NCBI GenBank assembly: GCA_017499595.2
Contig: CM039003.1
Location: 1,178,001-1,242,000 of the forward strand
From: Psilocybe cubensis
Lineage: Eukaryota
Direction: 5' to 3'
Length of the DNA stretch: 64,000 bases
The position numbers and the translations under genes were made by a program. Every line of letters starts with the position of its first letter. Position 1 is the first letter of the stretch. Below the pieces are notes generated by a model. That model saw nothing but the letters and a program-made list of their open reading frames with translations. It was not told where the DNA came from and made no database searches. This document shows positions 18,552-59,020 of this stretch, piece by piece.

Positions 18552-21000
18552 GTGTATGGGAGGTTCTAGACTTTTGTATGGGTGCTTGGGTGCGCGTCGC
18601 GTGTTGCGTGTTGTGAGCGTGCGCTGTGGTGTTGCTTAGTACTTACGGCTCTTTGGTTGCATAGAGAAGACATTGGAATCATCGGTTCAGTGAAGGAGCC
18701 TTCAGGCTCTGGAAACTCAAGGAGGTTTGTGGACTCTGATTGAAGGGAAGGATGTGGGTAAGTTTGTTTTCTTTCATCTTCTATTCTATTCAAAGTGCAG
18801 CCCTCAAACAATAAACTCGCATTGGCCAGCGGATACTGGCACTGGCAGTAGGTAGATTTGCGTGTCTGGGCTGGCACACCTCCACAATAATATTCGACGT
18901 CAAGGTCGACCAGCCTGTGACAGCGGTGCTCCGTGAGCTTGTCCTATCTATTCACATTCACTAGTTATTTATTGAATAGTTGTACTCCGAATCGAGACCT
19001 CCTAGGTGCACCTAGGTGCAAAACTGTCGTCTTCAAGACGAATTAAGTTAAAGTCTTCGTGTCATCCCACCCACTCCATATCCGACTCCGTTGATCAGAA
19101 TCTGATGGACGACGGGGACGGGGCGTGTTTTATTTTAAACATTCAACCTCTTTCTGTATGTGTAACGTTGATAGCGCTTTAAGTACCGTGACTCTGGAAT
19201 CGAATATAAAGTGTGGGTGGCGAATAGTATCAACCTTAACGCGGCAGGTTATGTCGGCGTTGCCTGCGGATAAACTCAAGAAATGTGATATCTTATCATT
19301 CCGTCTCCGTTTCTGTTAACGTTTTTTCCACACTGTAACGATGATTATACAGCTTCCTTTTGGACGCGGCATCCGGTGTGGGTGGATGTTTTTAAAGGGA
19401 AGCGATTAGGGACTCGATGCATTAAACTTGATTTGATCTCTGTTCAGCCTCCGTTGAGACATCCCAATAATCCCTGGGTGGGATAATATTTCCCGGAAAT
19501 CTATCTGGGCAAGCAACACGTTTTTTTTCTCTTCGAGATTGTAAACCGAAGGTTTGGTAATTGATAAACGACAAGACAATCGAAGGGATGATATGGCATG
19601 GCACACGCAAAAAAAATATACATGGCTGGAAATACGCGGATTCGGAGTCGACGCTTGACATACACTCCCGTTGATTCAATTGAATATTCATCTTCCCTGT
19701 TCCCAGTGGCCAGGTGCCCCAGGCCTCGATCGATGACACTGACAGTGAGGTCAAAGACGCGCCGAGCACAGCACATCCTGCGGTTTTACGACGGCCACTG
19801 GCTGGCAAAACGCCAATACCTGCCACCGTCTCAAATGTATATCTTTTTCTTTGGAAGCTAAAGATGGTTATCAGATAAATTGCAGCGGTCATACATACAC
19901 CAATCACGGCTCGCGAGCTTCTTCAATGATGGCGTAGTGGCTGGGCCGTGTGTCCGGACCAAAACATACAATTAGTAATTTTAGCAGTGCCATATAGCTT
20001 CTTTGCTCCGAATCTCTGCTCTGACCTTGTGTTCTGACCTGACCTGAATCCTGCCAGGGGGGCGGGTTTTTCTTCCATGGTGTCTATCATCATAATCATG
20101 CTCATGCTCATGCCCACCATTCCGCATGTCATTTCTCAATTTATATGTTCCCCCAGATATCAACGGACACTGGTCAGAATAGATATTCCCTTTTGCGGTC
20201 GTGCTGACCAATGAGAAGCTGTCGTTTCTACAGAGACTATTTATGGAAATAACTAACACACGCCTCGATTTGGCCAGGTTTTGAAAATTCAAATGTTGAC
20301 GGTGAACGGCGAACGTTGAACGTTGGACGTATGACTTTCGATCTTCCTTGGATTTAAAATTAACGGAACGTGAAATCGAAGGAGAAGAGGTGTAAATAGG
20401 TTATATATGCTCCAAACCACCTCATTGGCTCGTTATGATCCAAGGCCTGAACAGTTGACAACACTGAAAGACACGGGAATAATTTCTCTTTTTTTCGAAT
20501 TTGGTGAGTGCCGTTGTCGTTATTGTTTACAATTACATACATAGAAGGTCATTAACATTCTCGATGTCCGAGCCAGTCGAGCGGGGAGCAGTCTGACTCG
20601 GAGGCCCGCAGTCGCACTGGCAGTGCTGGTGAGAGACGGAAGACTGTCGGGGCCTTGGCACGACCTCATGTTTGAGCGGGATCCCACTGAGGCTGTGGCT
20701 GTTAAATGGATGTAATAGAGATATAGTTAATTAAACTCGTCAATTTGTGAGTATTTTTCAGACGTGCAGGAGACCCTTTTGAATTCACGGATGTTTTATT
20801 TTGGTTTTTGTTTTTGTTTGGTGCTCGGATTGAATGGGAATTTGGGAAAAGGAAGATCATTTTGTATTTGTTGTTGCTGTGACTCGGCGGCAGGGAGATT
20901 GTGTCAGTCGTTTGTCGTATTGCGTCTCCTACTGCTTATTCGCATGATATAGATAACATTAACACAAGGCTATCAGTATGCATTAGAACTTGAGTTGAGG

Positions 21001-21030
21001 GCCGTTGCTTCGCACGGCGATACGAGTCCT
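21001..21030 (-). repeat. 3' subterminal hairpin plus 3' asymmetric terminal inverted repeat of the Helitron
   Basis: Minus strand reads AGGACTCGTA-TC-GCCGTGC-GAA-GCAACGGC-CCTCAACTCAAG|TT. Confidence 0.88.
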
Positions 21031-21152
21031 TGATTTCCCTCACCCTATGATAAGATTAGATACTGATATCATCATATTGTATAATATAAATAAGAACATC
21101 ATAAACATTACGTAAATATTTATGTTAAGTTGCGTGTACTGTAAACGCCAGT

Positions 21153-21834
21153 TCAATCGTCGAATCTAGGCTGCTTCAAATTACTCCAATCCCATCTTTC
21201 GCGATCCCATGAAGGAGGCCTGGTGATAACGTCAGGATGACATCGTACAGTATACTGATCCATCAAATTCTGAAAATCTGTATTTGCATTATAATTAGAC
21301 AGTGTAGAGTACGAATTCGTGTTTGGGAAACCTACAGTTGCCTTTGCTAGTTACTATCAGCCTCGTTGACGGTAGTTGAAATGGCTCTTTCATCGATAGT
21401 GAAGTTGATGAGGCTGTCTCTTGAATTGAGTTGCTTGAGGTTATTGGCCGTGGAGGCACTGATTCTGTCATCGACCTCGCTGACGACTTTGCCCGACCGT
21501 TGCAGTTACTCTTTTTCCGTCTGTTGATTTGAATTTTTGAACGGCTCTACACAATGTATGTTAACGAAAATTAAAAGTGTCCTTAATGATGGTTCGCACT
21601 CACCTTGTGGTTATTCGAATGTCTCGTAAAATCGCATCTCTTGAGATGCTTTGTCCAATGTTGAGGGTCGAAGGGCCATTTCTTCGACAGTAATATGCTC
21701 TTCCCGCAACTTTTACACTCCACTGAGTTCTCAGTGACCGATGCTGCCAAGGGGTCACTCAGTAGGGCGTTACGCCTTGCGATAGCTCTTTTGTAGGAAC
21801 TACTTTCCGTAGCGTTGTCGTGCAAGACGTCCAT
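21153..21834 (-). CDS. Helitron cargo: small C2HC Zn-finger-like protein, 3 exons
   Basis: MDVLHDN...RRNALLSDPLAASVTENSVECKSCGKSILLSKKWPFDPQHWTKHLKRC. Two GT-AG introns join an open frame ending ...RERWDWSNLKQPRFDD*. Confidence 0.7.
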
Positions 21835-22399
21835 GTAGAAGTAGAACTTCGCTAACCAGATGTTTGGTCGTTGACATATGCAAGCACGTGCTACGTAGGC
21901 TTTTGAAGTCCGACGCGATGATATCGTTGCCTGCACCGATGGGGCGTGCATACAATCGATGTTATGGAGCGGTCGTTAGTTTGCGCGGTCGTGTTTTGGT
22001 ATACCGTTGATGTAAGGCAGTGACAGTTCTCCTGAATTTTTTTTTTTCAAGGTTAACGTGGAGGCGTTTCAATCAACAAGACAGCGAGGAGCAATTCACC
22101 TCGCCACGATATTTTCCCCATATCTGTTAAACTGGGTGGATGTTCGAAAGCATGATTTTGTCAGACCTGTGTCAACAGATGTTGAGATAAGCTGTATATT
22201 ATATGGGCCGAGGTTAGCACGTAGAACAAACTTCGTTTTGACGCCTTCAGTGAATGCAAACGCACATTCCGTTCAGGCGTGCAACAATCCTCCCGTTGCC
22301 CGTTCAACTCATTAACTTTCTGTTAATTCGTAGTACAGTATATGTTCTGAAGGATAGACAGCCAACGTGCTGTCAACCGGCTTCGGTGAGGGTCCGTTT

Positions 22400-24875
22400 A
22401 TTTTCGTTCGTTCGATCTCAGTCCAAGCTCGTCTACAGTCAGGAGTGTGAGTATACATCGACTTTCACCGTGCAATCGGTCTCTCACCTGAATCAATGTA
22501 TTCCAGACAACTAATATCGATTATACCCGTTGTACCGTATTCTCTCAGTAGTGCATCGAGGGGATTCGGTCATGTTATAGTGTCTCATACCACTCGATAC
22601 AAGTTTGACCGCAGTAGACCGTTGACGGAAATGAAGAAAAGTGACTGGTATCGCATGGTTTCCACCCTAAAAGTTGCTTGAGGTTATCAGTGGCGCAACA
22701 ATCTAAGAGGGGGAAAGTTGTTTGGGTGCTACTTACTGTCAGGATTCTTTTGTATTGATAGAGAGGCGTACCGCCCAGACCGTCGAGGGCACTTTGAAAA
22801 TTGTTGATCACACTGCATTTATAAGTCAGTTGACTCTCAAATACTTTGGCATAAAACTAAACGACTTCATGTTGCATTGCGTCAGAAACCACGGAGTGTA
22901 CGGAAGAAGATCATAGCAGGATGTGAATGGAATATAGGAGACATAGAGGAGTGTACGCAATGCACACAACAGAACCCCGGAAGCGGACTGAACAGGCATG
23001 TGATCTACCAAAATACCTACTGTCCACTTCCGTTACTCAGAACTGCTTACAGGTGTTACCTTTGTTTCACATTTGCTAATGGCCGTACAATTGTGTGCAC
23101 TAGAGGAATGTGCGTCTTCAACAGGCAACAGTGCCCTCATCAGCACGCAGTCCTTCTACCTCGCACCTTCAGTACACTCCATCCAATGATACTCTTCACC
23201 ACAAAAGATTCGCCCGCTCCCTCATCCTCCAACTTCTCCAACCATAGTTGATCAACAGCTCGTAACCGTATGAAGAGGATGGAAGAATGTACCGTGATGC
23301 CTGTGTTACCGTGAGTGTCAATGTATCCTCTGAAATATACTTTCATTTGAGTGCTCGTGTCTCTTTGCACCATCCATCCACCTTGGTCAACGTCTTTACG
23401 ACAAACGAACGGATAGGTGCGAGACTGTGAGATTAATTGCCGTCTGCTAGGCGCTCGTGAGTTTCACCCTATATTGTCAACATAGCATGGCACTCACATA
23501 CAAATAGAGATCCGGGTTCGATCAACCAGTCCGCAACACACTTACTCATACATTGTCGGTGCACACCTAACTGGGACAACGTCAATAGACGCACCGACAT
23601 ATAGCATAGAAAATGCGGTCCGACGGACGTTAGCGCGTGTATTGGTTTGGAATTCAGCAACCGTGCAACCTCAAATCACCCAAACAGAGATGGATCAAAG
23701 TTTCTTTGTACACCGCCTACTCTTCAACCCATCCAGTTTCCGTAAAAAACTGCTTAAACGGGAGTCGGTGTTTGCAATGTGGCACGTCGAGCGTACTGTC
23801 GTGAGTTTCAATGTGTTCATAGACCTTCGTCCGAGACATGCTGAAAATGGATGGGTCGTCTAACTTCAGCAAAAAAACACAAGACATTTACAACGCATGG
23901 GACGCGAGATACGGATTAAGACGGCGTCTGGCCAACTGTTAAACGCTAAAGTCTGTATGACTTGCTGTGTATCCACCGTATAGTTTCGCACTCACAATAA
24001 TAGGTAGTTCCAATAAGAGGTGTATACAACACGATACGACCCGGCATGTTGGAGAAGTTGAAATTCCTAGATCAAAGTTGTATTCCATGGTACGTACCCA
24101 TATTTGAAATGTCTAAATGCGGTGGCTTAATGCAAAATCTGCAGATGTTATTAGTTGGCTTCGTACGTTGTCAGTTTTTTTTTTTTTACGTGTTCGTGAA
24201 GGAATCCCAAGTAAGTCTAGAGAGGGTGATACAAATAACGTGAAAAGACTTACCTCTGTGTCAGTACTTCAACATGATAGTCCGCCTCTTGACTATGGAC
24301 ATTTATTGGGGTCTTTGTATCTGCGGTGTAACGTCAGGCAATACAATTGCGCGCAACAGGGCACTTCAATGGACCAAAATCATTATGCCACACCTATGAA
24401 CCATACACCAGCATATAAATGCGCTTAAGAATAAACCATACCTACGTCGTAGGTTTGTTTCGAACAGGCTATCCGAGCTGAACGAGTATTCAAGATGACC
24501 TATATCAAACAAAGCGTTTCCGTAGCACCTGCACCGCATCGAGTGTGACTGATATGGCTTGTAGTGGTTCGTTCGGATAAATATTCGTTTGGAGGTCGAT
24601 GCAGAGTCTGAGTCTGTTCATGTCGGTATCAAGATGGCCTTCGTATCGATGACCTGGGCGATTCGGGTGAGTCTTCGACACCTGGCGATACTCTCGATTA
24701 TGACACTTATCTCAACTCCTAGCAACGGACACCATATACCAGAATGCCGTTGTATATTGGACAACATCTCAGGTAGGTCGCCTGGTGTAAAGTTAAAGTT
24801 TATCATGTCCAGAGTCATGCGCGTATGACATCGTAAGCTTTTATATCCTGATTATGTTTGAAATTTACTCACCAT
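22400..24875 (-). other. Possible micro-exon-rich cargo gene or gene remnant, unresolved
   Basis: Many minus-strand GT(A/G)AGT donors and YAG acceptors, plus ATG|GTGAGT at 24875. I could not assemble a convincing protein, and the boundaries are approximate. Confidence 0.3.
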
Positions 24876-25172
24876 CGCCTACAAGAGGGCGTGATATCTG
24901 TCTCGGCTTTCATTCAATCATGGCTTCTCATGGTCTACAGCGTCTGAGTCGCTGATTCGATGTTGTAGTAGCCCGTAAACAGCATTATCAGCCAATGTTC
25001 GCTTGTCCGATTTCCGTTTGGAGCCCGCGCTCTGAATGCCGAACAATCCGTGACCAGCGACGAAAGTCCATATATGGTGGCCTTCCCATTTTCCATTTGC
25101 CACGTAATTTGTATCCCGCCAACTTCTTACCATCACCTGCATCTGCGGCCCCTCAAAACCAGCGAACAAAGA

Positions 25173-26513
25173 ATGGACGTAAATATAGGTAAGGCAGCAT
25201 TCTTCGTAAACCTTTTCTAACAACAAACTAACGAACTTATTTGTTTCCTCTTTATTTTACAGTCGCAGCATACGGATTGGCTTTCAGCCATGCCTTGGCC
25301 ATTTTTTTGGTCGTCTTCAGGCTCATTATCAGGCGGTGCGACAAACGGTGTTGGTACGACGATGGGCTGGCGGCTGTGGCTGTGGTTGCAGACTTTGTCA
25401 TTGCCCTCACATTGTTTAAATTGGGTGCGTTGTGATACTTTTTTTTTTTTTTTTTTTCTTTTTGTAGCCAGTCTTTTTTTATTTTACATTGATTGACATA
25501 TATCATGGGGTTGCTATGTATAGCCATCGACACACCTACCGCCCTTCCTGTTTCCTACCGAGTCGAACTATTTGCGTTCTTTATAGTTTTGTGGTGCGTA
25601 GTCACTTTCCACAACAAGCATGGCCACTTATTACTACGAATGCGCTGTCCAGGGTCTCCCGCGCCAGTATAGTGCTATCACCGAATCGACTGCACAAGGC
25701 CAAACAACTCCGTGTATTATGGGGCTGGCTGTACGCTGTCATATTCATCGCAATCGGCATTATCTTCTCCACTTTCGCCATATTTGTGTGCAAGGTCAAC
25801 ACCGATTGCAAGTCGGATACTGTGTGTCCATGCCAACCACCTTACATTCTGCTGTTGTTTTCTCTTATAGGTAAGTCACACTTCATCTAATCGACTGCCC
25901 ATTGCTGACTGCTATATAGCTGAACTCATTGCTGATATCTTGATTATTCGACGAAGCTGGACTATACTAATAGTAGAAACCCGCGTGTCCTTTTTCAGAC
26001 TGACGCACCGTTGGCGTGCCGTCGCGTTAGGTTACAACAGCAGCGTTTTCATAATGCTGTCCAGCGCCGTGTGGTTCGGGATTTACGTCAAGTTAGCTCA
26101 ACAATATCCAATGTTAGTTGTGTATGCATTAAGCGCTACTGTGAGTTCTTTATCTACACCATCATCTACAACATTGCTTCATTCTGCCTCAGGCCCTCGT
26201 GTCCTTATTGGCCATCAATGTGCCCGTCATCACGGGACCTCCAAGCAACAAAGGTCGTCGCACCCGCCTTCCAGTTGCGGGGCAAGACGTCATTCAACTA
26301 AATCGTCTCCAACCAACCACCGCTGCAGGACATGATGTTATTCAACACAATCGTCTCCAACCGATGACCGATGCGGTAAATCACGAAACATTGGCAAATA
26401 TAGCAGAGGCAGTGGATCGCAACGCTTCCAAGATATACAGTGACAAAGATTCAGGCAAGGACATACAGTTTAGGGCGCCCAATAATTCTGTGGAAAGTTT
26501 GTTCGACGACTAG
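25173..26513 (+). CDS. Helitron cargo: PTH11-like / fungal rhodopsin-domain integral membrane protein, 6 exons
   Basis: Spliced MDVNIVAAYGLAFSHALAIFLVVFRLIIRRCDKRCWYDDGLAAVAVVAD...IVLWVSRASIVLSPNR...AELIADILII...ALVSLLAINVPVIT. The RL..R...W.DD and W..R.SI..S..R motifs are present, and all 5 introns are GT-AG and keep frame. Confidence 0.75.
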
Positions 26514-26687
26514 TAAACCGTATGCCAGTGCATGGTATCAATCCACACAATTAGCGCAGTCGATACATGAATGTTCAGTGTTATATAGATAGTTGCATGC
26601 TATATATATATTTTATAACTCGTTGATGAGGATGTCTGTATTGGTTACATTGTAGAGCATACAACACATATGACATACAGTAAACAA

Positions 26688-29391
26688 TTATGGCAAATGA
26701 GTACTAATGTAAATATCGTGTTCGTGTCTCATCTGATTCCGATTAGCATTCTTTCTCTTTTGAGTTTCATAGGCCACACAACAATTTTCGGTTGGCGTCA
26801 ATAGCTCGCCATCCACTATTTGATCAGCTCCTCGATCAGTGGGCAGTACTTGTTTGACCACCAATACCACGCCATTGGTATCCTTCCTAGAATGCACACG
26901 TCTGACGCATTTACCCGCGTGTTCTCCTTCAATGATGGCTAATAACCCAAAGTCGTGCTTGATGGTAGGATGTTTGGGCTTTATATGGGTCGATTCAATC
27001 CGTAACGTCCGCTTCGAATTGGGTGTAAATCGCATCATGCACAGCTGCCCATCCACGTCCTCCTGAACGATTACAAACAACGGAGAAACGTGTCCATCGA
27101 CGGTTGCCTCTTCCACCGTCAAAGGAACTCCAATCAGCTCTCGTTTCAACAAAAGATTACAAGGAGTGGTTAAAGATGCAACGTTGGTACCGTCGCTTGA
27201 ATTTACGACGACGGTTCCTATGCTAATGCTTGTTAAATCTTCTGAATGGTCAGATGGATCCCACGCAGGCGAGGTGTCCTCAATAGTATCAGGCAATGGT
27301 GTATGTCTGCCACTGTCAGCGCTTTCAGTTCCTGTGGTTATTATGATCGATGGGTTGGCGAAGTTACGAGACTGGTGGACAGCGTTCGAATCATACGTCT
27401 TCGACAGGCTTAGAGGCTCAAAGGTACTACAAGCCGTGAGCGCGAGTACAAATCGGTAAATGAAATACGCTTACCTGTATTCCAGTACGTCGTCTCTGTT
27501 CAAAACAATTTTCTTGAAGGGATTCGACGGATCATATCGAGTCGGCTCTACAACTAAACGCAACTCAGGTTGACCTGTTCTTGGGCTTACGGACTGTAGT
27601 ACCTCGGCGACAATGCCGATTAAGCCTTTGAACGTATGATGTACCTTGCTCACTATCACAGTTACACCTTTCCAACGATGATATCGGGTCGTGTGTGATG
27701 TTGGGATAAGCGCGAGGAGCGATGAAGGCTGACATGTCGTCGCATCTCCCAGAGAAACGAAATTCCTGTGCATATATATAATCTGAGATGTATGCATGAG
27801 CCAGAGTATATATACGGTTAAATGACAAATACTTGCCTCCAACATCGAGTCGGCTGTATTGATTTGCTGGTCTTTTGTAGTGCCTTGCTTATCGATTAGT
27901 TGTATTTCATCTCCCTTGATGTCCACGACCCAACCCGATCGTCCAGCATTAACGCCAGCGTCAACCCCTACGTAATCCCCTATTTCGAAATGTTTTAAGA
28001 TGTCACTCCATACGGTGCGTATTGTTGTCAACAGCTGGGTCGTAGTTGTATCAACTCTGTGGATTTCAGTTTCGTTGTAATGTTGACCAGTTTCGTCATG
28101 GTCGCAGCCTTTGTTGTATATATCGACATCGACCATATTATCGTCGTCGGCTTGCGCAATGACTCCGAGCCAACCTGTAGATCTCATTACCACCCATTCC
28201 ATGGTTCGCATGATCCATTCCTTTGGCTTTGGTATCGGCGCGTGATGGAGTGCGGGATGCCCACTCATACAAAATGATGTATACGTCACGTAACTCAGAC
28301 CTTCACGACATGAGGCAACGTGTCTGGGATCGTAGTCCACCCGGGCCAAACCATGCTCAAAGATCAGATCACCTACGCGATAGACAGATGCTCTGCCTGA
28401 TTCTATGTATAAATGAGAGTTACGAAGGCCTGTCGGATCGAATAGCTTAGGCGCGGGCACCGCAGTGTATGTCTTCCGTTTACGAGATGACTTCGTTTTG
28501 GTGGACACGTACTCGTAACGGGGGATCATAAGCATTGACACCCCCCACGATCCTTTCGAAACGACAAAGCCTACATCGCCTTTGTATACACCTCGTTTAA
28601 CCTTGAGCCATTTTCCGACCGATAGGTTCGTAATGTCCCCTCCCATGTACAACAGTTGCTGAGCCTCATTCTTATCGATCGGACTCAGGAGCACGTCCGT
28701 AGTTTTTACGATGATGCCGGGCGATCTTTTGATAAGGTCAATCATAGGCTGATCCATCAAACATTCCAAGTATATGTATCCATGTACAGAACTGCGTGAA
28801 AACGCGGACCGAATATGATGTTCTCGGCGCGAGTTTTTGAGTAAAGAAGCGACCGCGATTTCTTCGTATCCGACCTTACGTATTGTTCATCGATATGGTT
28901 GGCAACACACAAATTTAATTCGATGGTATTAAACTTACTTTACATCCAATCCTCCATGTAGGATAGTCCGTGGGCAGATTTTCGAAGCCCGAATCAGTGT
29001 TTCCGTGCGGTGACAAAACAGTAGGATTGTCAGCGTTTGAATACAATGGTTCCACACCCCGGTACATATCAGAGGCGGGCAGTGAGTGAGATCTACCACG
29101 TGTTCTCTCTTCAATTTGTTGAATTACGAGGGCCAGTCGGTCTCTCTTTGTAACAGGAATGGGTTTGTCCATTGCCACAGATGATGAACCGTCACAATCT
29201 TCATGGGATTGAGTTCCGTCGTCGATGAAGCATTCTGCGAGTAAATTTGGTTTATCTCGTATGTTGGAATGACATGAGACTGAGTAAAACGAAATATTAT
29301 GCGCACCAAATTCGTCAGATTCGGCTGAACCATCCTCTGAATCTCCGTGATCGACATTCGCTTCTAAGTCCAAGAATGGGTTGGGAGCCAT
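26688..29391 (-). CDS. Helitron cargo: Spt5-like transcription elongation factor paralogue (acidic N-term, NGN, KOW repeats)
   Basis: NPFLDLEANVD...FIDD (Spt5 N-term); PTWRIGCK|VGYEEIAVASLL...IRSAFSRSSVHGYIYLE (NGN); VGKWLKVKRGVYKGDVGFV...MIPRYEY...PKLFDP (KOW1); KHFEIGDYVGVDAGVNAGRSGWVV (KOW); HTFKGLIGIV (KOW); HIKPKHP...IIEGEHAGK (C-terminal KOW-like). Confidence 0.85.
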
Positions 29392-29993
29392 AGGTAGTCT
29401 AAAAAGAAGCAGAAAAAAAATTAAAAATTTGCCGTTTATATGTATAGCATTGCGTGAGTAGATATAGACATACTAAAGCAACGACTCTGCAAAGCAGTCG
29501 CTGACAGGTTTAAGGTGTTCTTCAAAATGAACTATCGATTTGAACACATTTAGAATACCATCAATATTTCTATCATATATCGTAATATAACCTACAGCCT
29601 AACAAATATTGTATATTAGCCTTGAAGATACGAATACTGGTACGATGTGGCAGCAAATGACAACGTCGAAAAAGGTGTTCAAGTCGGATAGGCACAGTTC
29701 TTAAACAGAGCGGTGAACGAAATTTCGGCAAGTTCCGATATCCCTTTGATGCGAAGGTATTAAAGGAACATGTACGACATTCTCCCACGCTTTTGGATCG
29801 TCCTTTCAACCACACGATGCTCGATGCAATGTAGTCTATGGGTTCAGATTATACAGCTGAGTCTAATAGACTGATACGCTGCGACACTATCGAACGATAA
29901 ATACCATACTGATATGAATATAAACAGTTGTTATCTGAGCATGTATCAACTGAGGCCTCCATAACCATAAAACACTTTGGATAAATTTTCATC

Positions 29994-32900
29994 TTATTCC
30001 CTCGCGTAAATAGCATACAATGCATGTTTCAAGTTTCCCCCATTTACGGAAATGCGTAGCCATTGAGATACATCATTAACAAGGTCATGAACATTACCCT
30101 CCTTTACGCATCTATTTCCAGTAGTAATGCCGTCGTGGAACCACACGTCCCCTTGCAGGTCAACATACCGAGAAACAAAATGATGTTGCCCGCCGTAGAC
30201 AACCCCAGTAAGCTTATACTCTACGTTGAAACTATCCGATTTGAACATAATATCAGGGTTTATAGCAAACCGTGGCGAGCATATATCCACTGTCATAATG
30301 TAAGGTAATCGTTCAACCTTATGGCATAGCGACATATATACGATATGCTGATTTTGTGCACACGAAGGGCAATTCTTCGAACTCAATCGTTGAGCATCGC
30401 TCAGGTTAAAACCTAAACTGTCTGAAATAGAAGACACCTCCTGGGAGTCGTCGTGGAAAACGCCAGTGCGTGCCACACTTATATATTCGCCTAGTCGCAT
30501 TACGGGTCTTTGGTCATTGTAGCCGCATTTACTGCACACGAGAACAGACATTCCAGAAGATCGCTGGCCCATCACAGCGGTCATAACTCTGTCAATGTAT
30601 GTCATATTTGGACCCATAGGAAAATCAAGCGGGCTGCGTGAGTGCATATCGTTTCTGACGTCGTTTCGTGCGCTCTCTAGAGAAATTGATCCATTCTGCA
30701 CAAGTGCGAATTGTCCGCTGAGTCTGTCTAATAACGGTGTCAAATCACTGAATCTATTGGTCCACATCTCAGGTGCACTTATCCATAGGTTATATAACAC
30801 GGTAAAGATGGAGTCGTAACTGCAACTGTAGTTGTCCGCGTCCCACTTTGTACCTACAGGTAGGACCGCAAACTCGGAGGGTGTGCTTAGCAACATTCGT
30901 TTCCTCGGTCCTATACAGTCTGAGCGAATTGGTTGGCGCTTATTGCGCTTATCTTTTGCCCTGTCGGTGACAATTGCCTTAACACTGTTGAGAGACCAGG
31001 TGCCGTCCTTTTCCGGAGTTCTGATAAGCTGCTTTGATGAAGAGACTGCCAAGGTAGGATGCCAGTCTGTACCAATGGATTGCGATACGTCGAGAAGCAT
31101 GAAAGACCGAATTGTCGGATTCCTTAATCCATGCAACACGCCGTCTGGAAGCTGTCCATTGTATTTCATGGTGGTGATATGATCTAATATATTGAGTTCA
31201 CGGAATTCCTGGCGCAGGTGCCCACTAATACCCTTTGTAATCTTAGACGCATCGAATCTACCGAGTAAGATGGTACCACTGGCGTTCGAACTTCTAGATA
31301 CACAGGTGTAATAAGACGAATGATCCTTACAATGATCTAAATGTATCAAGTTATAATCTCGCGTCTTACCTTGAGACGAATAATCGGTCATGGCAAAATT
31401 GGGCAGCACTAATACCTGCTGGCGGTTTACATTGATTTTTGTGCCAGACTTGAGAGTACATGTTACTCGAGACGACGTTCGCGTAAGTGGAACAACATTA
31501 ACAGGCAAGTCAGCTAATGATACAGGGTTCGGCGGTCTGATTAATTCCACGAACAGCGTATCAAGTACAGGTCTACCAAACGCACCAACAGAAGATTCCC
31601 ATCCTACGACGACAGCCTCCTGTCCTTTAGTGATACACAACTCTGTGGCGTCGTTATGCCGTATCATAACTGGCAGACCTACGCACAGAGAAAGTTTTGC
31701 TGGCACTTGTTCGCTAGAACAGGCGCTGCGACCCCATAGGGCTTCCTGAAGACGCTGGGACATCTTTGTCTGTTTGGTTGCTTTAGACGATCCTGATGGT
31801 CGTCCGCGAGGCCTGCGAGTTTCTCCTTCTTGTGTACCCAGACTATCGACAGAGAAAAAATGATGCAATGTACGTCCGCTCTCTTTAGCGTATCTTGCGA
31901 TGCCCTGCTCATTGAACCTATCCTTTTGATTATTCCACGCAGTGATAACAGATACGTTGCGAAAAGCAGGGTCAGTCAATATAGGTTTACCTTCAATAGT
32001 CGTCAGTTTAGAAGCTAACCTTGACTTGAGGAACGATATATCAGCGTCTGTACAGGCGGCATACCGCATGTTTTCAAGTGCAGTGCGCAACTTTGCGTCT
32101 TCCTCAGTCTGCGTTTTTTGTCTCATGTTTTGTTTTAGAATAACGACAGTCGTGAATTGGTGCCAGAATATCTTGCCTAGAGTAGCTTCTTGCTCGGACA
32201 CCTTCATGCGAGCGTCTTGCGTATGTTTAATGGAAGGACTATAAAAGGGGAGATTACCTACCGGCGGTAGCTGAGCGAAGTCACCAGCTAAGATCATTGA
32301 TATACCTCCGAACAGTGTATCGTCGTTAAACACTTGTGACAGACGTCTACTAATGGCATATAAATCCCTCGACGACAGCATAGATATTTCATCAATAAAG
32401 ATATACTTGACACCCTTTAATCGAGCTCGTACGTCATTTATTACTGCGACTTCGTTTTTTGAAAAGTCTTGACCACGATCCGACTTGGACCGTATTCCTA
32501 ATACACTGTGATAAGTAGATCCGTTGAGGAGTGCAGCAGCGGTACCTGTGGGTGCGAGAACCACAAATCGGTGAGATTCGCCTCTCGACTCAAACATATG
32601 AATGATAGATTTGATCACTTGACTTTTGCCAGTACCGCCCATGCCACCGAGATGCATCCTCAGCTGACCAGGCGACAGCAAACTAGCGTGATTGGCAACA
32701 ATACGGAAAGCCCTTTCCTGTTCCGTATTCAAGGTGAAATCGGCGACTGTAGAATCTACTAACACATTATGTTCCATTTGCTTTGCCTTGTACGACCTGA
32801 GCAGATAATCCGAAGAAACTACTTTGACGTCATTAGTAGACTCTTCGTTGGAAATATGAATGTTTGTTATATCATCTGAGGGATCTGAAGGCACGTAACC

Positions 32901-35900
32901 GGACAACTTCTGTTTAAACAGTCTAATTTTTTCAGCTTTTATTAGAGATGCCCAGCTCGTATGCGTCTTGTATTCAGCAGGCCTGAACATGCTGACTTCT
33001 TGACATGTAACATCGCTAGAGGCGTTAGAAAACAATCCTGCAGATTGTATGATGCCATCTACTTCTCGCTTTAACAACACCTCTCTGCGGTATGCCTCAC
33101 CAATCTCTTCATAATCTAAATGATCTTCACCGAATTCAAGGCCGACAAAGTCGTTGTATTGATCGTCGAGACCGCAACCATCAGGATAGAGTTCATCCGT
33201 GTAAACATCTTGTTGTTCTCCGTCTTTCCTTCTTAACTGTGCGTGAAAATCGTCTCTGTCGTCTAAACATTCATATCGCAGATTAAAGTTATCCATTAGT
33301 TTCAACTGTCGGTCGGAAAAAGCGTAAATGGTGAATGCATGTTCCCAAGTCTGATGCAATGATTTCAAATCTAACCCAGACCTCCAAGGTTTGAACAAGG
33401 TCAGCATACTGCAACAATAATACTCTCTGTCGCCTTTGTCGCGCCGTGGAAGGGGACCGCCTAGAAAATTGGGGACAATATTGTGCGCTCGGGATGAGTC
33501 ACATTTGACTACGTGAGTGGAATAAAGAGGGTGCTCCTCAGTGAAACGTTCAAAACTTCTTTTGTTTATTTTAATATTTTTTCGCACACCGTCATATTTA
33601 ACACGTTGATCAGAATCATCATCTGCAGGTATACCAAGACATGCATCAATGAAATCTTCCATCCCCCCGCCTTCACGTATGTCGGACGCATGATCATCTT
33701 CGAAGGTGAGTGTTTCACTACGCAAACGCTCCATTTCATTTTTAGTGAGCTTACGGCGCTCATAAGATCTAATCCAGTCGAATAGAGACATGTCTTCTTG
33801 AGTGACTGGGCGGTATTTATAATCATCTACATTACTAGAACCTACATAATGACCGTCATGTCGAGCTAATATAACTTTCTGTTCTTCATCTTCAGCATTT
33901 TCTAGATCCTCTACGGTAGGTAGGTGGGCGGCTTGGTCATCAGTGATACCGGATTTATGACTGCTCCTTGCGTCACTTACAAAACTTCTCCACCAAAAAG
34001 GTACAAAGGTATGATCAGTGTAATGATCAGGGTTGCCCAATAAATACAAGGAGGCCATCGGAGAACCTATCTCCATCTTAGAAGACAGAGAGTTGACAAT
34101 TTTAAGCATCAACCTTCTGCCTGCGTCTTTACCTTCAATCTTGACATCGTCTTTAACTTTTTTTTCTTCACGTTCAAACACGTCATACATAGAGGTAAAT
34201 ATCTGATACGTTTTCAATGCGGGTTTGCTAATATAGTCTGATATATAATATATTATTGCTTTTATCGAAGTACCCGACAACAGACATGTCACGTCGGTAT
34301 TACTTCTTGTGAGGTACGACAGCGGAAGAGTAAAGGTATTTAACATCGCTTCCAACTTTTTCAAAAATATGTGACCGTCGACGTGATCGACTTGAGACTG
34401 TTCGTACAGCCTTCGCGGAAATCGTGCTTTACAATTTCCATTCCAATCCAGGCAACCTTTCGGGCCCTTAGGCATATTTTTTATACCTTTTGATCCGTCA
34501 GGGTCATCAATTTGCTGACCGTATGAAACAGTGCATCTGTGCACATTGGACTTCAATATGATATCATCGACTGTAGTTTCGTAATTGTCCCACCATTCAG
34601 CATTAGAAATGCATGATGTGCAGTGGTCCGGACCATTGGAATCTTGACAAGCATGTTCTACCGGTATAGGGAGTGTTAGAGTCGGATCTGCGTAACTGGA
34701 ATTTACAGCCTCGTCATCCTCTTGTATAATTGAATGAAGTCCATCAATTTCTTTGTCGTAAATATGTGGCACGCGGTCTTTAACAGTCTGCATGTTTCCT
34801 GTAAGAAATTCGCCTTGATGACAGCCTTCCAAATATGATAGAAGGCTCGCCTGAAATGCAGAGTCGTTGTTCATAATACGGTCACGGATTTGCTGTGGAG
34901 ACAAGCAATTCTCAATCCATAGTAACATATGCAAATGTAAGGTGAGTCTTCCCTGCTGTTCTACCGTACCATAGTACGCTGAAGTTTTACCATACAAACC
35001 TCGATGAATATTGGATCCGACGCCTAGCACGTGTTTAATAAACAATTCAATTATGAGATGAAAAAAACGGGCAGCCGATACGGGATTCTGTGCAACCAGT
35101 CTATTCCTTTCAGAAGAAGGTAATATGTCTGGTGTAAAGGTCAGCTGTTCTTTGGCATAATATATTGATATAGGATGTCTGTTATCGGCAGGTGACAAGG
35201 TTATAAACCATATTGGGCAACCTTTGAAAGAAAGCAAAGACCATATCTCATTGCGCATATACTTTTTAGACGTGATTGACCCTTTAACATATCCTCCAAC
35301 GTGGTCAAGATCATCTAAAAGTTTGTAACAGTCTTTCTCACTGTCTGTTTCAGGTGATACATGGTCCCCATTTACAAGACGAGAGGAAATGTCTTGAAGA
35401 ACCGTTTTGTCTATAGAGAGCAATCTTTTAGATATCGCATCAAAATTACGGCGTTTTGCAACAAGAAAGCTACCAGTAACGCCACCTTTCAGTTGCTCGT
35501 GATTGAATGCAATAATAGGAAAATAAAGGTCGCGCTGGAAACGCTTATCATGGTGCATAAGCAGTATTCGCTTATGTTCTGACTCTGAAAGTTTACGCTT
35601 ATGACAATGCTGACCTATTCCACCATAACCGTAAGGAAATAGCCAAGGGAACATCTGCGGATAGGCCTGAGGATTATCGTACATAGACTGCGGTTTTGGA
35701 TCATGCCCAATAGCTAGCATTTTGCCTTCATTTTCTATGTGTTGCAAGGCTTTTGCCTTCAAAGCTTGTATGGACATATTGCCATAGTCTGTTCCACTCA
35801 AGCCATGGACAGTAAACGGACAAGGTCCGTCTACAGTTCCTTCATCTTCGCCTTCGTCGTGTAGACTCATTGTAGACTCCATACGATTAGTACCGTTGCG

Positions 35901-38510
35901 CTGTCTGTAGTCTACAGCTACGGGGACACCTATCAGCGGGTAAGACTGGAGATTTTTCTTGGATATTTCAAGATCAATATAATCCTTATGGTTAAGTTTC
36001 AACCATTCCAGAGCATCTGCGACCTTATTGCGACGCACTAGCATTGGACTACGCTTGAACTCTTCTTCCGTGGGTTGGGTTGGTCCTGTAAATATAAAGG
36101 CAAGTACCTCGTCAAGTTCTGGCTTTGAAGGAGGTAATTCATGATACACTTTCAGCGTTGGATTAGAGTACATGATGACATTTGCTGTCATTTTAGCCCG
36201 CCCAGAGGAAACTCTGACCAGACAGCGATTATGCCGAATGCGAGCAATCATCATGCGCTCTGCAAACGAAAGATCTTGCAGCTGAGAAGGTATTTTACCT
36301 AACCACAAATGATTTGCAAGCGAATGTCTCGGCACATGACCTTTTTTCAACGCAGCAGAGCAAGTATCGCATACATGGTTACATGCAGGATCGATCACAG
36401 GGCCCGGGATGTCCTTCACCGGGTCGTCAGGATGTAATCTCTCTACACGGGTAGCTCCCTCAACTGCGAGTATGTCAAGGGGATGATCAAACATAGACAA
36501 GTGAGTTAAATTATGCAAAGGCTGCAGCAGACCGCAGACCATGCAGCCTGCTTCCTCCAGTAGAGATGCAGATGAATCAGCGCAAAATCCATTGATGATT
36601 TCCTCTATCAGAAGCTTTGACGGTGGTTGTGGCGGAAACACATGGTCGTTTGAAGTGTGGTCAGAGTCTGATGTGGATACAAAAGCATCACCGTTGAGCA
36701 TGTCAACATCGGAATTAGCAGATTCTGCGCCTGCCTGCCTCTGACGTTCTCGAGATGCTCGTTTATGTAGAACATTTTGGTTACGATTATGCATGATTGA
36801 CTCTTCTGAATTGACTGTACTAGGTATTGCCTCAAAGATATATAAATGAGTGGAACATATACCACATTCATGACCATCTGTTAATTTTATCAGAGCAGAT
36901 TTTTTGGTCTTGGAATTAAATGATGTAATACCGTGTTCTTTCAGTACATCCCGAAGCTCGCTTGAAGTGAGCCATTTGGTTGCACTTTGTATAGAAAATC
37001 GACAAAGAACTAGACGGCGTTTGTGGGGTGCGGACGCTTCGGCAGAGAGAAATGACTCTAAATCACGTATGTACGGCATATACCTAACGAACTTGTATGT
37101 ATCACTATAATTAAACGATGCTGTGCCACTATAGGGTACAATATGACTTTCTATTAAAGCAGATGAAACGAAGCGAGAAAAATTTACAGCACTGTCTGTA
37201 AGTTCAAACTGCCGATCTGGATTACAAGAAGATGAATTGCTCTTAATTTTTCTATCTGACACTGATACCACACGTTCAAAAATACAGACATTACGAAGGC
37301 AAGTTCCGCACACATGATCACGCAAAAGTTCAATGGCATTGCCTCTATTTGTGGTTGAATTGATGCCGTACACTCCATGTAAACTTGCAATAGACCTAAT
37401 TTCAGAAACAGACAGCCAACTAGCAGTGTCAAAGAGAGAGAACCTAGCAACTATTAAATCAGATATATTGTCAATGGAAGTTGAAATGTGAGCGTCTGTA
37501 GCAAGGTACTTCACAAATCTGTATTTAGTTTTAGCTTGAACGGAGGCACATCCCGTATCTTGTACCACACGGTATCGCAAAATCTCTGAGCTGACAACCT
37601 TTGAAACACCGCCACCTCCGCCTTGCAAGACATCGGAAGGATGATAGTATGAGCATTCAGAAACATTAGCAGTAAATGAGATGTAGTGGAAATAGTTGAG
37701 ACCGAATAACCAGGAACACTGAAACGGATACATTAGAACGCCCTTCGATACTATATTAATGAAGGGATATTTCTCTGACCAAAGACGAGGTTGCGTGTAA
37801 TGTCTGTCGAGCGTGAATTGATGCAAGGCGCATCTTGGCAAAATGGCTACCAGGCACCTATTATATTCCCACTTCCTGAGATGATTACGTTGGAGCAACA
37901 GAGATACTAAAATAGAAACTCTACGTGTATACGTTGCAGGCGTGAATCTTAACCACAAATAAGCCGACATTGAATGACAATCAATATATATGAAGCGGCG
38001 AAATTGCGAGTGCAACAAACGCACATTTCCATACGAGTGGGACTGTTTGACGGGTATCTCAGAAGCGGACGTAGTAGTACGATTCAAGCAATGCATAACA
38101 TGAACTAATACTACAGTAAGACGCACTCTACAAACTTTGTGCCCACTTGATACGCTGCTAGATCTAGTACATGTACGACTACGCAATAGATTATTGCCAG
38201 GAAATCGAACATCGTAGGTTGGAAATTCCCCACAGGGTAAGCAAAAGTCTATTGACCAATTATTTGTTTTAAACAACTGTTGATTGACAGCTATACAACT
38301 ACTAAGCATCGATATTGTTCGAGAATCACCAGCATAATTGGATGCGTTCAAGGAGTGTACATTAATGCAACATTGTATGTGGCCACATAGGATTCCTACA
38401 AAATAGCGACAAATGTCAGATCATACACAGTACACATAAGGAGAAGATAACTCACCCCAACCAGAAACTAAAATAAAAAGAGCGTAGAAATGAAGTGATG
38501 CGGCGAGCAT
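29994..38510 (-). CDS. Helitron RepHel transposase: HUH-Y2 Rep + PIF1 helicase + C-terminal USP-like Cys peptidase
   Basis: Open frame of 2785 codons plus an in-frame first exon (38510-38456; intron 38455-38396). DUF6570-like SLANHLWLGKIPSQLQDLSFAERMMIA; Rep motifs WFITLS, YGTVEQQGRLTLHLHMLLW, YISDYISK; helicase GMGGTGKS, APTGTAA, IDEISM, GDFAQLPPV, MTDYSSQGKT, YTCVSR. Confidence 0.95.
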
Positions 38511-47700: not shown

Positions 47701-47800
47701 NNNNNNNNNNNNNNNNNNNNNNNNNNNNNNNNNNNNNNNNNNNNNNNNNNNNNNNNNNNNNNNNNNNNNNNNNNNNNNNNNNNNNNNNNNNNNNNNNNNN
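47701..47800. other. Assembly gap (100 N placeholder)
   Basis: Run of exactly 100 N. Confidence 1.
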
Positions 47801-50046: not shown

Positions 50047-50629
50047 CTCGAAAGCTACAGTACATTTACATTGACTTACCCTGTATTTATAGGGTTCGAG
50101 AGGTCGAGCACAGGCTTGGAGTGATTCTTGCACGGATCGTAAGTCGTAACAGATGTACTGATGTAAAAAACGAGACAGTATGTTCGGACCGAAGCATGTG
50201 GTCAAATTATGAAGACATGTTAGACGAGGGCAAGGCCATTAGTGCATTGTTGCAAAGAATCCATCAAAGCGGAGTCATTGAAAGATCCATCCCATGCGGG
50301 AAACCCGAATAGACGCATCTCATGGCTAAATGGTAGCATCGTTGATGAGCTCGTACTATGCTAGCCGCACTTGTACAGGATCGACGTGAAAGCGTTCGAC
50401 AGGTACGTCGTGTTCGTAGATAGCAAAAGTTTCTTCACAAACTTGGCTTGGAAGAAACAGTCAATGTTTAGAACCCTGCCGATACCAACACTCACCACTT
50501 ACCACGATTGCTACCTTGCTACTCAACAGTTCCTAAAACAGCCCATAGGTTGCCAAAGTTGCAGGTATTGGCGTTGGCCATATTTAGATCTACTCGGGGT
50601 CGTCACACATGATCTAACTTGAGTTGAGG

Positions 50630-50659
50630 GCCGTTGCTTCGCACGGCGATACGAGTCCT
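50630..50659 (-). repeat. 3' hairpin + 3' asymmetric inverted repeat, copy 2
   Basis: Same sequence as 21001-21030. Confidence 0.88.
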
Positions 50660-50781
50660 TGATTTCCCTCACCCTATGATAAGATTAGATACTGATATCA
50701 TCATATTGTATAATATAAATAAGAACATCATAAACATTACGTAAATATTTATGTTAAGTTGCGTGTACTGTAAACGCCAGT

Positions 50782-56142: not shown

Positions 56143-56316
56143 TAAACCGTATGCCAGTGCATGGTATCAATCCACACAATTAGCGCAGTCGATACATGAA
56201 TGTTCAGTGTTATATAGATAGTTGCATGCTATATATATATTTTATAACTCGTTGATGAGGATGTCTGTATTGGTTACATTGTAGAGCATACAACACATAT
56301 GACATACAGTAAACAA

Positions 56317-59020
56317 TTATGGCAAATGAGTACTAATGTAAATATCGTGTTCGTGTCTCATCTGATTCCGATTAGCATTCTTTCTCTTTTGAGTTTCATA
56401 GGCCACACAACAATTTTCGGTTGGCGTCAATAGCTCGCCATCCACTATTTGATCAGCTCCTCGATCAGTGGGCAGTACTTGTTTGACCACCAATACCACG
56501 CCATTGGTATCCTTCCTAGAATGCACACGTCTGACGCATTTACCCGCGTGTTCTCCTTCAATGATGGCTAATAACCCAAAGTCGTGCTTGATGGTAGGAT
56601 GTTTGGGCTTTATATGGGTCGATTCAATCCGTAACGTCCGCTTCGAATTGGGTGTAAATCGCATCATGCACAGCTGCCCATCCACGTCCTCCTGAACGAT
56701 TACAAACAACGGAGAAACGTGTCCATCGACGGTTGCCTCTTCCACCGTCAAAGGAACTCCAATCAGCTCTCGTTTCAACAAAAGATTACAAGGAGTGGTT
56801 AAAGATGCAACGTTGGTACCGTCGCTTGAATTTACGACGACGGTTCCTATGCTAATGCTTGTTAAATCTTCTGAATGGTCAGATGGATCCCACGCAGGCG
56901 AGGTGTCCTCAATAGTATCAGGCAATGGTGTATGTCTGCCACTGTCAGCGCTTTCAGTTCCTGTGGTTATTATGATCGATGGGTTGGCGAAGTTACGAGA
57001 CTGGTGGACAGCGTTCGAATCATACGTCTTCGACAGGCTTAGAGGCTCAAAGGTACTACAAGCCGTGAGCGCGAGTACAAATCGGTAAATGAAATACGCT
57101 TACCTGTATTCCAGTACGTCGTCTCTGTTCAAAACAATTTTCTTGAAGGGATTCGACGGATCATATCGAGTCGGCTCTACAACTAAACGCAACTCAGGTT
57201 GACCTGTTCTTGGGCTTACGGACTGTAGTACCTCGGCGACAATGCCGATTAAGCCTTTGAACGTATGATGTACCTTGCTCACTATCACAGTTACACCTTT
57301 CCAACGATGATATCGGGTCGTGTGTGATGTTGGGATAAGCGCGAGGAGCGATGAAGGCTGACATGTCGTCGCATCTCCCAGAGAAACGAAATTCCTGTGC
57401 ATATATATAATCTGAGATGTATGCATGAGCCAGAGTATATATACGGTTAAATGACAAATACTTGCCTCCAACATCGAGTCGGCTGTATTGATTTGCTGGT
57501 CTTTTGTAGTGCCTTGCTTATCGATTAGTTGTATTTCATCTCCCTTGATGTCCACGACCCAACCCGATCGTCCAGCATTAACGCCAGCGTCAACCCCTAC
57601 GTAATCCCCTATTTCGAAATGTTTTAAGATGTCACTCCATACGGTGCGTATTGTTGTCAACAGCTGGGTCGTAGTTGTATCAACTCTGTGGATTTCAGTT
57701 TCGTTGTAATGTTGACCAGTTTCGTCATGGTCGCAGCCTTTGTTGTATATATCGACATCGACCATATTATCGTCGTCGGCTTGCGCAATGACTCCGAGCC
57801 AACCTGTAGATCTCATTACCACCCATTCCATGGTTCGCATGATCCATTCCTTTGGCTTTGGTATCGGCGCGTGATGGAGTGCGGGATGCCCACTCATACA
57901 AAATGATGTATACGTCACGTAACTCAGACCTTCACGACATGAGGCAACGTGTCTGGGATCGTAGTCCACCCGGGCCAAACCATGCTCAAAGATCAGATCA
58001 CCTACGCGATAGACAGATGCTCTGCCTGATTCTATGTATAAATGAGAGTTACGAAGGCCTGTCGGATCGAATAGCTTAGGCGCGGGCACCGCAGTGTATG
58101 TCTTCCGTTTACGAGATGACTTCGTTTTGGTGGACACGTACTCGTAACGGGGGATCATAAGCATTGACACCCCCCACGATCCTTTCGAAACGACAAAGCC
58201 TACATCGCCTTTGTATACACCTCGTTTAACCTTGAGCCATTTTCCGACCGATAGGTTCGTAATGTCCCCTCCCATGTACAACAGTTGCTGAGCCTCATTC
58301 TTATCGATCGGACTCAGGAGCACGTCCGTAGTTTTTACGATGATGCCGGGCGATCTTTTGATAAGGTCAATCATAGGCTGATCCATCAAACATTCCAAGT
58401 ATATGTATCCATGTACAGAACTGCGTGAAAACGCGGACCGAATATGATGTTCTCGGCGCGAGTTTTTGAGTAAAGAAGCGACCGCGATTTCTTCGTATCC
58501 GACCTTACGTATTGTTCATCGATATGGTTGGCAACACACAAATTTAATTCGATGGTATTAAACTTACTTTACATCCAATCCTCCATGTAGGATAGTCCGT
58601 GGGCAGATTTTCGAAGCCCGAATCAGTGTTTCCGTGCGGTGACAAAACAGTAGGATTGTCAGCGTTTGAATACAATGGTTCCACACCCCGGTACATATCA
58701 GAGGCGGGCAGTGAGTGAGATCTACCACGTGTTCTCTCTTCAATTTGTTGAATTACGAGGGCCAGTCGGTCTCTCTTTGTAACAGGAATGGGTTTGTCCA
58801 TTGCCACAGATGATGAACCGTCACAATCTTCATGGGATTGAGTTCCGTCGTCGATGAAGCATTCTGCGAGTAAATTTGGTTTATCTCGTATGTTGGAATG
58901 ACATGAGACTGAGTAAAACGAAATATTATGCGCACCAAATTCGTCAGATTCGGCTGAACCATCCTCTGAATCTCCGTGATCGACATTCGCTTCTAAGTCC
59001 AAGAATGGGTTGGGAGCCAT
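56317..59020 (-). CDS. Spt5-like cargo protein, copy 2
   Basis: Copy of 26688-29391. Confidence 0.85.

Follow-up and report, generated by a model that had tools for sequence, protein, structure and literature searches.

A diverged Spt5 paralog carried as cargo by a Helitron of the mushroom Psilocybe cubensis

The locus holds two identical Spt5-like genes, each directly downstream of RepHel

We analyzed a stretch of 64,000 nt from the genome of Psilocybe cubensis (NCBI GenBank assembly GCA_017499595.2, contig CM039003.1, positions 1,178,001 to 1,242,000 of the forward strand), hereafter called the window, in whose coordinates all positions are given. The gene under study occupies 26688-29391 on the minus strand and encodes a protein resembling the transcription elongation factor Spt5, a name ("SPT5") that NCBI has already attached to it. 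It begins 602 bp past the stop of RepHel (open reading frame [ORF] 38420..29994), the transposase gene of a Helitron, and shares its orientation. RepHel is recognized by its Pfam matches (DUF6570, 1e-39; Helitron_like_N, 5e-33; PIF1 helicase, 5e-27). Self-comparison of the window shows that 20987-34371 equals 50616-64000 at 100% identity and, therefore, that a second copy of the Spt5-like gene lies at 56317-59020, such that two units of RepHel plus Spt5-like gene stand 29,629 bp apart. The principal features are as follows:

26688..29391, minus: Spt5-like gene, copy 1 (ATG 29391-29389, stop 26690-26688)
56317..59020, minus: Spt5-like gene, copy 2, identical to copy 1 (self-comparison, offset 29629)
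29994..38420, minus: RepHel ORF, 8427 nt, 2808 codons from stop to stop, with the HLH motif in GRLTLHLHMLLW
59623..64000, minus: RepHel ORF, copy 2, cut by the window end (self-comparison)
20988..21036, minus: Helitron 3' terminus, copy 1, ending ...CTCAAGT, at the boundary shared by the copies
50617..50665, minus: Helitron 3' terminus, copy 2 (self-comparison)

The best model of the Spt5-like gene, which we call model C, has five exons, four predicted GT-AG introns, and a product of 810 aa:

29391-29307, minus: model C exon 1 (GT-AG candidate introns here and below)
29234-28939, minus: model C exon 2
28874-27833, minus: model C exon 3
27745-27475, minus: model C exon 4
27426-26688, minus: model C exon 5

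Gene models were scored against a hidden Markov model (HMM) of the protein family from which the protein of the window itself had been excluded. The match of model C is unbroken and spans HMM positions 72-817 of 831 (569 bits). Of the two public models, the NCBI model P0151 (744 aa) reaches 509 bits, split over two pieces, since the KOW5 exon is spliced out in it, and P0414 (789 aa) reads the KOW5 stretch in another frame. Relatives of the protein keep the exon that P0151 skips and P0414 frameshifts, and no exon of model C holds an in-frame stop. Judged by model C against the family HMM, the gene is intact. The initial annotation of this DNA had described an apparently intact, intron-containing gene, co-oriented with RepHel and directly downstream of it in both copies, and the coordinates together with the 100% identical repeat confirm this description.

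The product is a highly diverged Spt5 paralog

Along the gene, the domains follow the order found in Spt5:

28641..28968, minus: NGN coding region (P0151 residues ~118-205), with an intron at 28938-28875 after WRIGCK
28221..28640, minus: KOW1 and linker (residues ~206-345), WLKVKRGVYKGDVG ... KRK ... PKLFDP
27876..28220, minus: region of KOW2 and KOW3 (residues ~346-460), in which the insert at 386-405 is poorly conserved
27475..27745, minus: exon 4, KOW5-like domain, HRWKGVTVIVSKVHHTFKGLIGIV ... YDPSNPF, open in frame
27252..27311, minus: single remnant resembling the C-terminal repeat region (CTR) of Spt5, GRHTPLPDTIEDTSPAWDPS
26763..27152, minus: C-terminal tandem beta domains, KOW6/7-like, followed by a terminal helix (P0151 residues 591-720)

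The motifs from which Spt5 had been proposed in the initial annotation are all present and in the order given there, namely NPFLDLEA, FIDD, WRIGCK|VGYEE...GYIYLE, WLKVKRGVYKGD...IPR...PKLFDP, and GRHTP...SPAWDP. At the level of Pfam profiles, the NGN part of that proposal stood: P0151 scores 25.7 bits against Spt5-NGN, over the gathering score (GA) of 22.4, and 10/10 full-length relatives scanned pass the same threshold. The ORF of exon 3 alone reaches 21.3 bits, under the GA, and its KOW1_SPT5 match is likewise weak. The remaining profiles stay under their thresholds in this protein: KOW1_SPT5 scores 17.8-19 bits, below its GA of 22, and Spt5_N is not reached by P0151, although the relative P0106 does pass it (25.4 versus a GA of 24.2). 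The acidic N-terminus, NPFLDLEANVD, nonetheless aligns with N(R/Q)FLDIEAEV of yeast and Schizosaccharomyces pombe Spt5.

Profile searches give a stronger signal. A family profile of 31 members, compared with chains of the PDB, matches 8qsz_Y with E 1.8e-61, the Spt5 chains of K. pastoris and S. cerevisiae with E 1e-57 to 1e-61, human SPT5 with E 3.8e-49, and Arabidopsis KTF1 (8hyj_W) with E 1.5e-31, and P0151 as a single sequence matches yeast Spt5 with E 7e-13. The alignment with 8qsz_Y spans FLDIEAEVD of the acidic N-terminus, NGN, KOW1-3, and KOW5, and runs into the TPAW repeats of the CTR, where the CTR remnant aligns to the TPAWNSGS repeats. The KOW2-3 region aligns to Spt5 of S. pombe and K. 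pastoris, and about 100 S. pombe residues between KOW3 and KOW5 are without a counterpart in the family profile. A CTR array is not present; there is one GRHTP...SPAWDPS unit, and relatives carry 1-3 units of (S/T)PAWDPSSRTP.

The structure prediction agrees with the alignments. The AlphaFold2 model, built from 149 sequences, has a mean predicted local distance difference test score (pLDDT) of 74, with folded domains above 90; specifically, the NGN domain reaches ~95, the KOW2-3 strands >90, and the C-terminal tandem domains 85-96. In a Foldseek search of the PDB with this model, ranks 1-24 are all Spt5 chains of RNA polymerase II (Pol II) elongation complexes, such that the NGN/KOW fold expected for the gene is indeed predicted. 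The KOW1-linker part matches 4ytk (Spt5 KOW1-Linker1) with a TM score of 0.78, and the C-terminal domain matches 6er0 (human Spt5 KOW6) with a TM score of 0.65. Within the NGN domain, E164, the Glu of GYIYLE, is invariant in the family alignment A2 and aligns with E338 of yeast Spt5, which we take to be a residue contacting Spt4. PMC4978902 gives E338K as the change in the yeast allele spt5-194. Altogether, these results bear out the claim that the gene encodes a highly diverged Spt5 paralog with the Spt5 domain order.

Set beside canonical fungal Spt5 (8qsz_Y, 7wbv_W, and 7nky_Z), the protein has the same order of acidic N-terminus, NGN, KOW1-linker, KOW2-3, KOW5, and TPAW motif of the CTR, and it keeps the equivalent of yeast E338. 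It differs in being very diverged and shorter (~810 aa), in having a CTR cut to one remnant, and in missing the residues between KOW3 and KOW5. Moreover, canonical Spt5 is a single essential host gene, whereas the Spt5-like gene is multi-copy and transposon-borne, as described below.

The gene lies inside a recently active Helitron

The two copies of the repeat lose identity at 20987/20988, and the flanks beyond this point differ. Since both copies share the 3' terminus at 20988 while their flanks differ, the Spt5-like gene lies inside the mobile unit. Two further features belong to this side of the element:

20988..26687, no strand assigned: the 5.7 kb of the mobile unit that remain downstream of the Spt5-like gene
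21001-21018, minus: subterminal hairpin GCCGT..ACGGC, 5-bp stem, 12 nt inside the terminus

On the minus strand, the terminus reads ...GCCGTGCGAAGCAACGGCCCTCAACTCAAGT, that is, a small hairpin and then the element end. The folding energy of this hairpin is not above that of shuffles (z -1.0), and the terminus is CTCAAGT, not the textbook CTRR. Pfam matches were found in 0/10 of the other ORFs of the element. Inside the mobile unit, at 25210-26513, a series of ORFs on the plus strand contains hydrophobic segments like those of membrane proteins and has no Pfam match.

Mobility was assessed with two further data sets, of which X12 consists of raw reads from another strain and X11 of contigs from a further run with the same species label. 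In X12, the depth is ~22 in the flank, ~50 in the element through at least 40.6 kb, and ~244 over the terminal 49 bp (20988-21036), which amounts to ~2x the flank for the element and ~11x for the terminal stretch, and 175+32 reads have loose ends exactly at 20987/20988. Therefore, some ten elements have the terminus in common, and ~2 copies of the autonomous element are present. A family of further elements, perhaps non-autonomous ones, shares the Helitron 3' end at 20988-21036.

In X11, the flank contig departs from the window sequence at 20989, depth is found in 1/30 bins over the window, and a 64-nt contig of the terminus stands at a depth of 48.9 (flank, 19.3) with the element body left without coverage. 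The pattern resembles an empty site, although a gap in the contigs does not by itself prove that the element is missing. The onward sequence of the X11 flank contig was not found anywhere in the window, and therefore the insert or rearrangement relative to X11 measures at least 43 kb; the loose-end sequences of X12 likewise have no match in the window. A head-to-tail array of ~29.6-kb Helitron units is a possible arrangement.

In the reference assembly, the identical Spt5-like protein appears under 4 NCBI accessions on 3 contigs, plus a partial copy, and 2 of these 4 accessions lie six apart, which fits the two copies in the window. With at least 4 identical copies in the reference, the gene is not a single-copy housekeeping gene; rather, it shows the presence/absence between strains and the multiple identical copies that mark a mobile Helitron. 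We conclude that the Spt5-like gene is cargo inside a recently active autonomous Helitron of P. cubensis.

Two observations on other copies may be added. The X12 reads have loose ends on both sides of 22979-23012 as well (27 reads on one side and 19 on the other, agreement ~1.0), so that one copy in that strain differs structurally at this point. X8, a separate run under a different organism label (coded organism D), contains contigs of the element at low depth, in pieces across 25692-38911, with 27/29 pieces at >=99% identity (99-100%); mixing of samples, a wrong label, or recent exchange between taxa could account for them.

The gene belongs to a multi-copy family in Agaricales

Among 1.84 billion representatives, relatives of the Spt5-like protein form 546 clusters at E<=1e-3; stricter cutoffs leave 181 at 1e-10 and 45 at 1e-30. 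Even the best ones share only 35-38% identity with it, and full-length open frames at 25-38% identity occur in dozens of family clusters. The taxa include P. cubensis, P. cyanescens, Panaeolus cyanescens, Panaeolus papilionaceus, Pholiota, Flammula, Cyclocybe, Armillaria, Hymenopellis, Amanita, and Dendrothele. P. cubensis itself holds at least 3 further subfamilies, one with at least 5 near-identical copies on five contigs, and Panaeolus cyanescens has at least 7 Spt5-like clusters on contigs of 3.6-15.7 kb; many family members lie on contigs of 3.6-15 kb. The Pfam character of the family was judged from 10 and 7 hits taken from the best 150 of the 546 at E<=1e-3, and the long members so scanned are without the strong multi-domain Pfam signature of housekeeping Spt5. 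Many members are nevertheless labeled "SPT5" or "NGN domain-containing" by the NCBI and UniProt pipelines. A four-sequence family alignment gave no match to viral contigs.

Conservation within the family follows the predicted fold. The top-residue fraction is 0.41-0.47 in folded domains and 0.30-0.39 in linkers, and the C-terminal tandem domains are as conserved across the family as the NGN domain. Taken together, these sequences place the gene in an Spt5-like family that is multi-copy, evolves fast, and extends across Agaricales.

Within P. cubensis, five Spt5-like proteins of three subfamilies (KAH9476157, 6183, 6358, 6447, and 6619) fall within ~460 consecutive accessions. Four of the five are on a 3.05-Mb contig, and KAH9476619 is seen only as a shared record, so that its contig is partly inferred. 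If the contig is shared, these proteins would represent a local pile-up of elements.

At least one Helitron sublineage has kept the gene beside RepHel

We also approached the association from the RepHel side, with a metagenome scan that yielded 80 loci whose RepHel relatives are 40-53% identical to that of the window. The downstream sequence of these loci was checked with the family HMM on all six-frame ORFs and by tblastn with 168 stored proteins (P0001-P0169), which comprise the hits of the family together with a few unrelated proteins from the same clusters. Both searches gave a match at one locus alone, L077. Among the loci listed, L077 is the one whose best segment comes closest to the RepHel query (53% identity). 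About 830 bp past its RepHel, it contains the exons RRFLDLEAGVDD (FLDLEA), DFIDNG...PIWRIQCR, and IGLEEIAVFSLF (IGLEEIAV), after which the contig ends. Two intron positions are common to L077 and the window gene, one of them being the intron that splits the NGN domain.

A second case comes from P. cyanescens. Among named proteins, the one that best matches the C-terminal half of the window RepHel is CVT25_014753 of this species (PPQ87198, 60% identity), and the closest relative of the Spt5-like protein is CVT25_014756 (PPQ87201); the records of PPQ87198 and PPQ87201 both report a 14,624-bp contig. In a quick maximum-likelihood tree of family members, made without canonical Spt5, the Spt5-like proteins of P. 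cubensis and P. cyanescens are sisters with an SH-aLRT support of 99.

Three lineages of one sub-clade thus show the association, which more distant relatives lack. The Spt5-like gene therefore counts as accessory to a Helitron sublineage and does not belong to the Helitron core. At least one such sublineage has kept the gene directly downstream of RepHel since before the split of P. cubensis and P. cyanescens. Since its relatives are full length at only 32-38% identity, two intron positions are shared with L077, and a sister gene lies beside a sister RepHel in P. cyanescens, the gene is old rather than a fresh capture; in this respect, the comparison supports the earlier proposal of a long-maintained element gene.

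A role in transcription of the element is the favored interpretation

We are highly confident of the descriptive part of this account taken as one claim, in which an intact, diverged Spt5 paralog is the cargo of a Helitron, belongs to an Agaricales family, and has been retained in a Helitron sublineage. For the whole statement, in which a function for the element is added to this part, we put the chances at somewhat short of even.

Since the NGN domain, KOW1, and the Glu equivalent to E338 are kept, the protein probably still sits on the Pol II clamp, together with Spt4. There, it would act as an alternative large subunit of the DSIF type. With most of the CTR platform lost, it would recruit fewer CTR-dependent partners than the canonical factor. 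Acting for the element, the protein could keep Pol II processive through the 8.4-kb RepHel gene or, alternatively, sustain RepHel transcription in silenced chromatin. We consider such transcription help or silencing resistance for RepHel to be the most economical use of the gene and the most likely one; in our ranking, it is followed by a functionless passenger, a silencing decoy, and a RepHel tether, in that order. A more specific version, in which a Helitron-adapted elongation factor loads on Pol II at the element and either carries RepHel transcription past silencing or hands RepHel the single-stranded DNA (ssDNA) of the transcription bubble, is a tentative proposal.

The closest analogue for this mode of action may be found in bacteria. 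Plasmid-borne NusG paralogs (RfaH type, and ActX / PrfaH of IncX plasmids) are reported to be needed for long conjugation operons (PMC11880322 and PMC7819879). As with the Spt5-like gene, a member of the universal NusG/Spt5 family is carried on a mobile element and adjoins long genes that the element needs. The likeness is one of analogy, RfaH and ActX being two-domain proteins of bacteria whose recruitment depends on an ops DNA signal.

Comparable gene arrangements have been described in other mushroom Helitrons. In the HELPO1 Helitrons of Pleurotus ostreatus, cap genes whose function is unknown (capA, capA2, and capB) lie directly downstream of RepHel, and relatives of capB lie beside RepHel in Armillaria and Dendrothele; no conserved domain is reported there for capA or capB (Castanera et al. 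2014, PMC4289320). The HELPO1 cap genes resemble the Spt5-like gene in being one co-oriented gene directly after RepHel. Armillaria and Dendrothele, the capB genera, also hold members of the Spt5-like family, a link that consists in the overlap of host genera only. By this analogy, the cap genes of other mushroom Helitrons may be the same kind of gene. A full-text search of the literature found no report that connects an Spt5-family gene with a Helitron or with a eukaryotic transposon of any other kind, and in a Paramecium Helitron paper Spt5 appears only as a host factor.

Several observations weigh against the favored interpretation. The introns of the Spt5-like gene are predictions from sequence only, and both public models lose KOW5, such that the mRNA may fall short of the full protein. 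The 5' end of the element has not been located and lies beyond 40.6 kb, where the two-copy depth goes on. An Spt5-like match was found at 1/80 RepHel loci (L077), or 1/26 of those with at least 1 kb of downstream sequence, and at 0/12 of the more distant loci with at least 3 kb; consequently, of the expectation that the two genes co-occur elsewhere, the P. cyanescens contig and L077 uphold one part, and a general companionship across the RepHel clade does not hold. Between P. cubensis and P. cyanescens, the Spt5-like proteins are 32% identical versus 60% for RepHel, which means that the accessory gene evolves faster than the transposase. Within the species, 4/4 variants in the Spt5-like gene are non-synonymous, which are too few for a test and give no sign of recent purifying selection; the RepHel variants (8 non-synonymous, 4 synonymous) are also too few. 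Finally, Helitrons are known to take up passenger genes, and PMC4289320 describes gene capture downstream of RepHel as typical of fungal Helitrons.

Capture of this kind, the absence from 12/12 distant loci, the fast divergence, and the non-synonymous variants would all fit a passenger gene, that is, a host Spt5 duplicate that was captured once by 3' read-through, multiplied by riding on the element, and is tolerated or slowly decaying. However, dozens of clusters still have full-length open frames at 25-38% identity, conservation extends to every folded domain and is lower in the linkers, intron positions are kept in L077, sister genes adjoin sister RepHels, and the Glu equivalent to yeast E338 is retained. 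We regard a passenger as unlikely, though it is the alternative to be taken most seriously.

A second alternative is that the protein is a silencing-related factor, at work in non-coding transcription and small-RNA pathways and, for the element, serving as a decoy that diverts or blocks host silencing. Its models would be plant SPT5L/KTF1 (8hyj_W) and Paramecium Spt5m (PMC5416832), each of which is likewise a second Spt5 beside the housekeeping one, with a diverged C-terminus. The specialized eukaryotic Spt5 paralogs known so far serve small-RNA-directed genome defense, and the family profile does match KTF1. Nevertheless, SPT5L/KTF1 and Spt5m are host genes, whereas the Spt5-like gene is transposon-encoded; KTF1 has a long WG/GW array, whereas no WG/GW AGO-hook array was found in the disordered part of the Spt5-like sequence, which has a single PAWDP motif; and the canonical fungal Spt5 chains match the family profile far better than KTF1 does. 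A silencing decoy therefore seems improbable.

The immediate position of the gene after RepHel in three lineages, together with a strongly conserved C-terminal tandem domain and helix to which no partner is assigned, offers circumstantial support for a coupling to transposition. In such a scheme, the paralog would hold RepHel at Pol II, be it transcribing or paused, and the HUH nuclease of RepHel would thereby meet the ssDNA of the bubble at element ends or targets. Most RepHel relatives, however, manage without an Spt5-like gene, and we rate this explanation as quite improbable. That the gene is a decaying pseudogene misread as intact is least credible of all and hardly worth entertaining, for although the public models disagree at KOW5 and the introns are predicted only, the canonical GT-AG model gives a single unbroken HMM match, no exon contains an in-frame stop, and the copies are identical.

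We return to the favored role in transcription of the element to consider its consequences. To our knowledge, no transcription factor other than Spt5/NusG is conserved throughout the domains of life. Specialized Spt5/NusG paralogs are a recurrent route to privileged transcription of a small gene set. If the more specific version proposed above is true, this Helitron would be the first known case of a eukaryotic transposon with a general transcription elongation factor of its own, equivalent in eukaryotes to the RfaH/ActX of plasmids. If the family acts for its Helitrons, it would represent a new route by which transposons secure their expression or link transposition with transcription, it would assign a function to the "captured genes" of Helitrons that have stood as unknowns since 2014, and it would provide natural, highly diverged Spt5 variants for mapping the indispensable surfaces of Spt5. 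For annotation, dozens of mushroom "SPT5" entries would be transposon genes and not the host factor.

Further features of RepHel and of the window

The window contains a 100-N assembly gap at 47701-47800, which lies between two 1.1-kb segments, 46558-47667 and 48763-49847, that are 78% identical to each other.

The C-terminal ~420 residues of RepHel (29997-31300, minus) contain Cys/His boxes, WD..NYSC.YDS ... GG.HF(V/I)SR ... W(F/Y)HDG, that are kept in 12/12 aligned RepHels. In sequence, these boxes look like those of a USP/UCH-type cysteine protease; Pfam returned nothing for them at E<=0.01. Nearer the N-terminus, at residues ~310-520 (~36900-37500, minus), RepHel has two similar modules, the first reading KYRFVKYL...WLSVSEIRSIASLHGV...C.TC...IFE and the second TYKFVRYM...WLTSSELRDVLKEHGI...C.IC...IFE. 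One of the two has a weak HeH/LEM match (E 1e-4, below GA), and together they may constitute a duplicated SAP/HeH-like DNA-binding unit.

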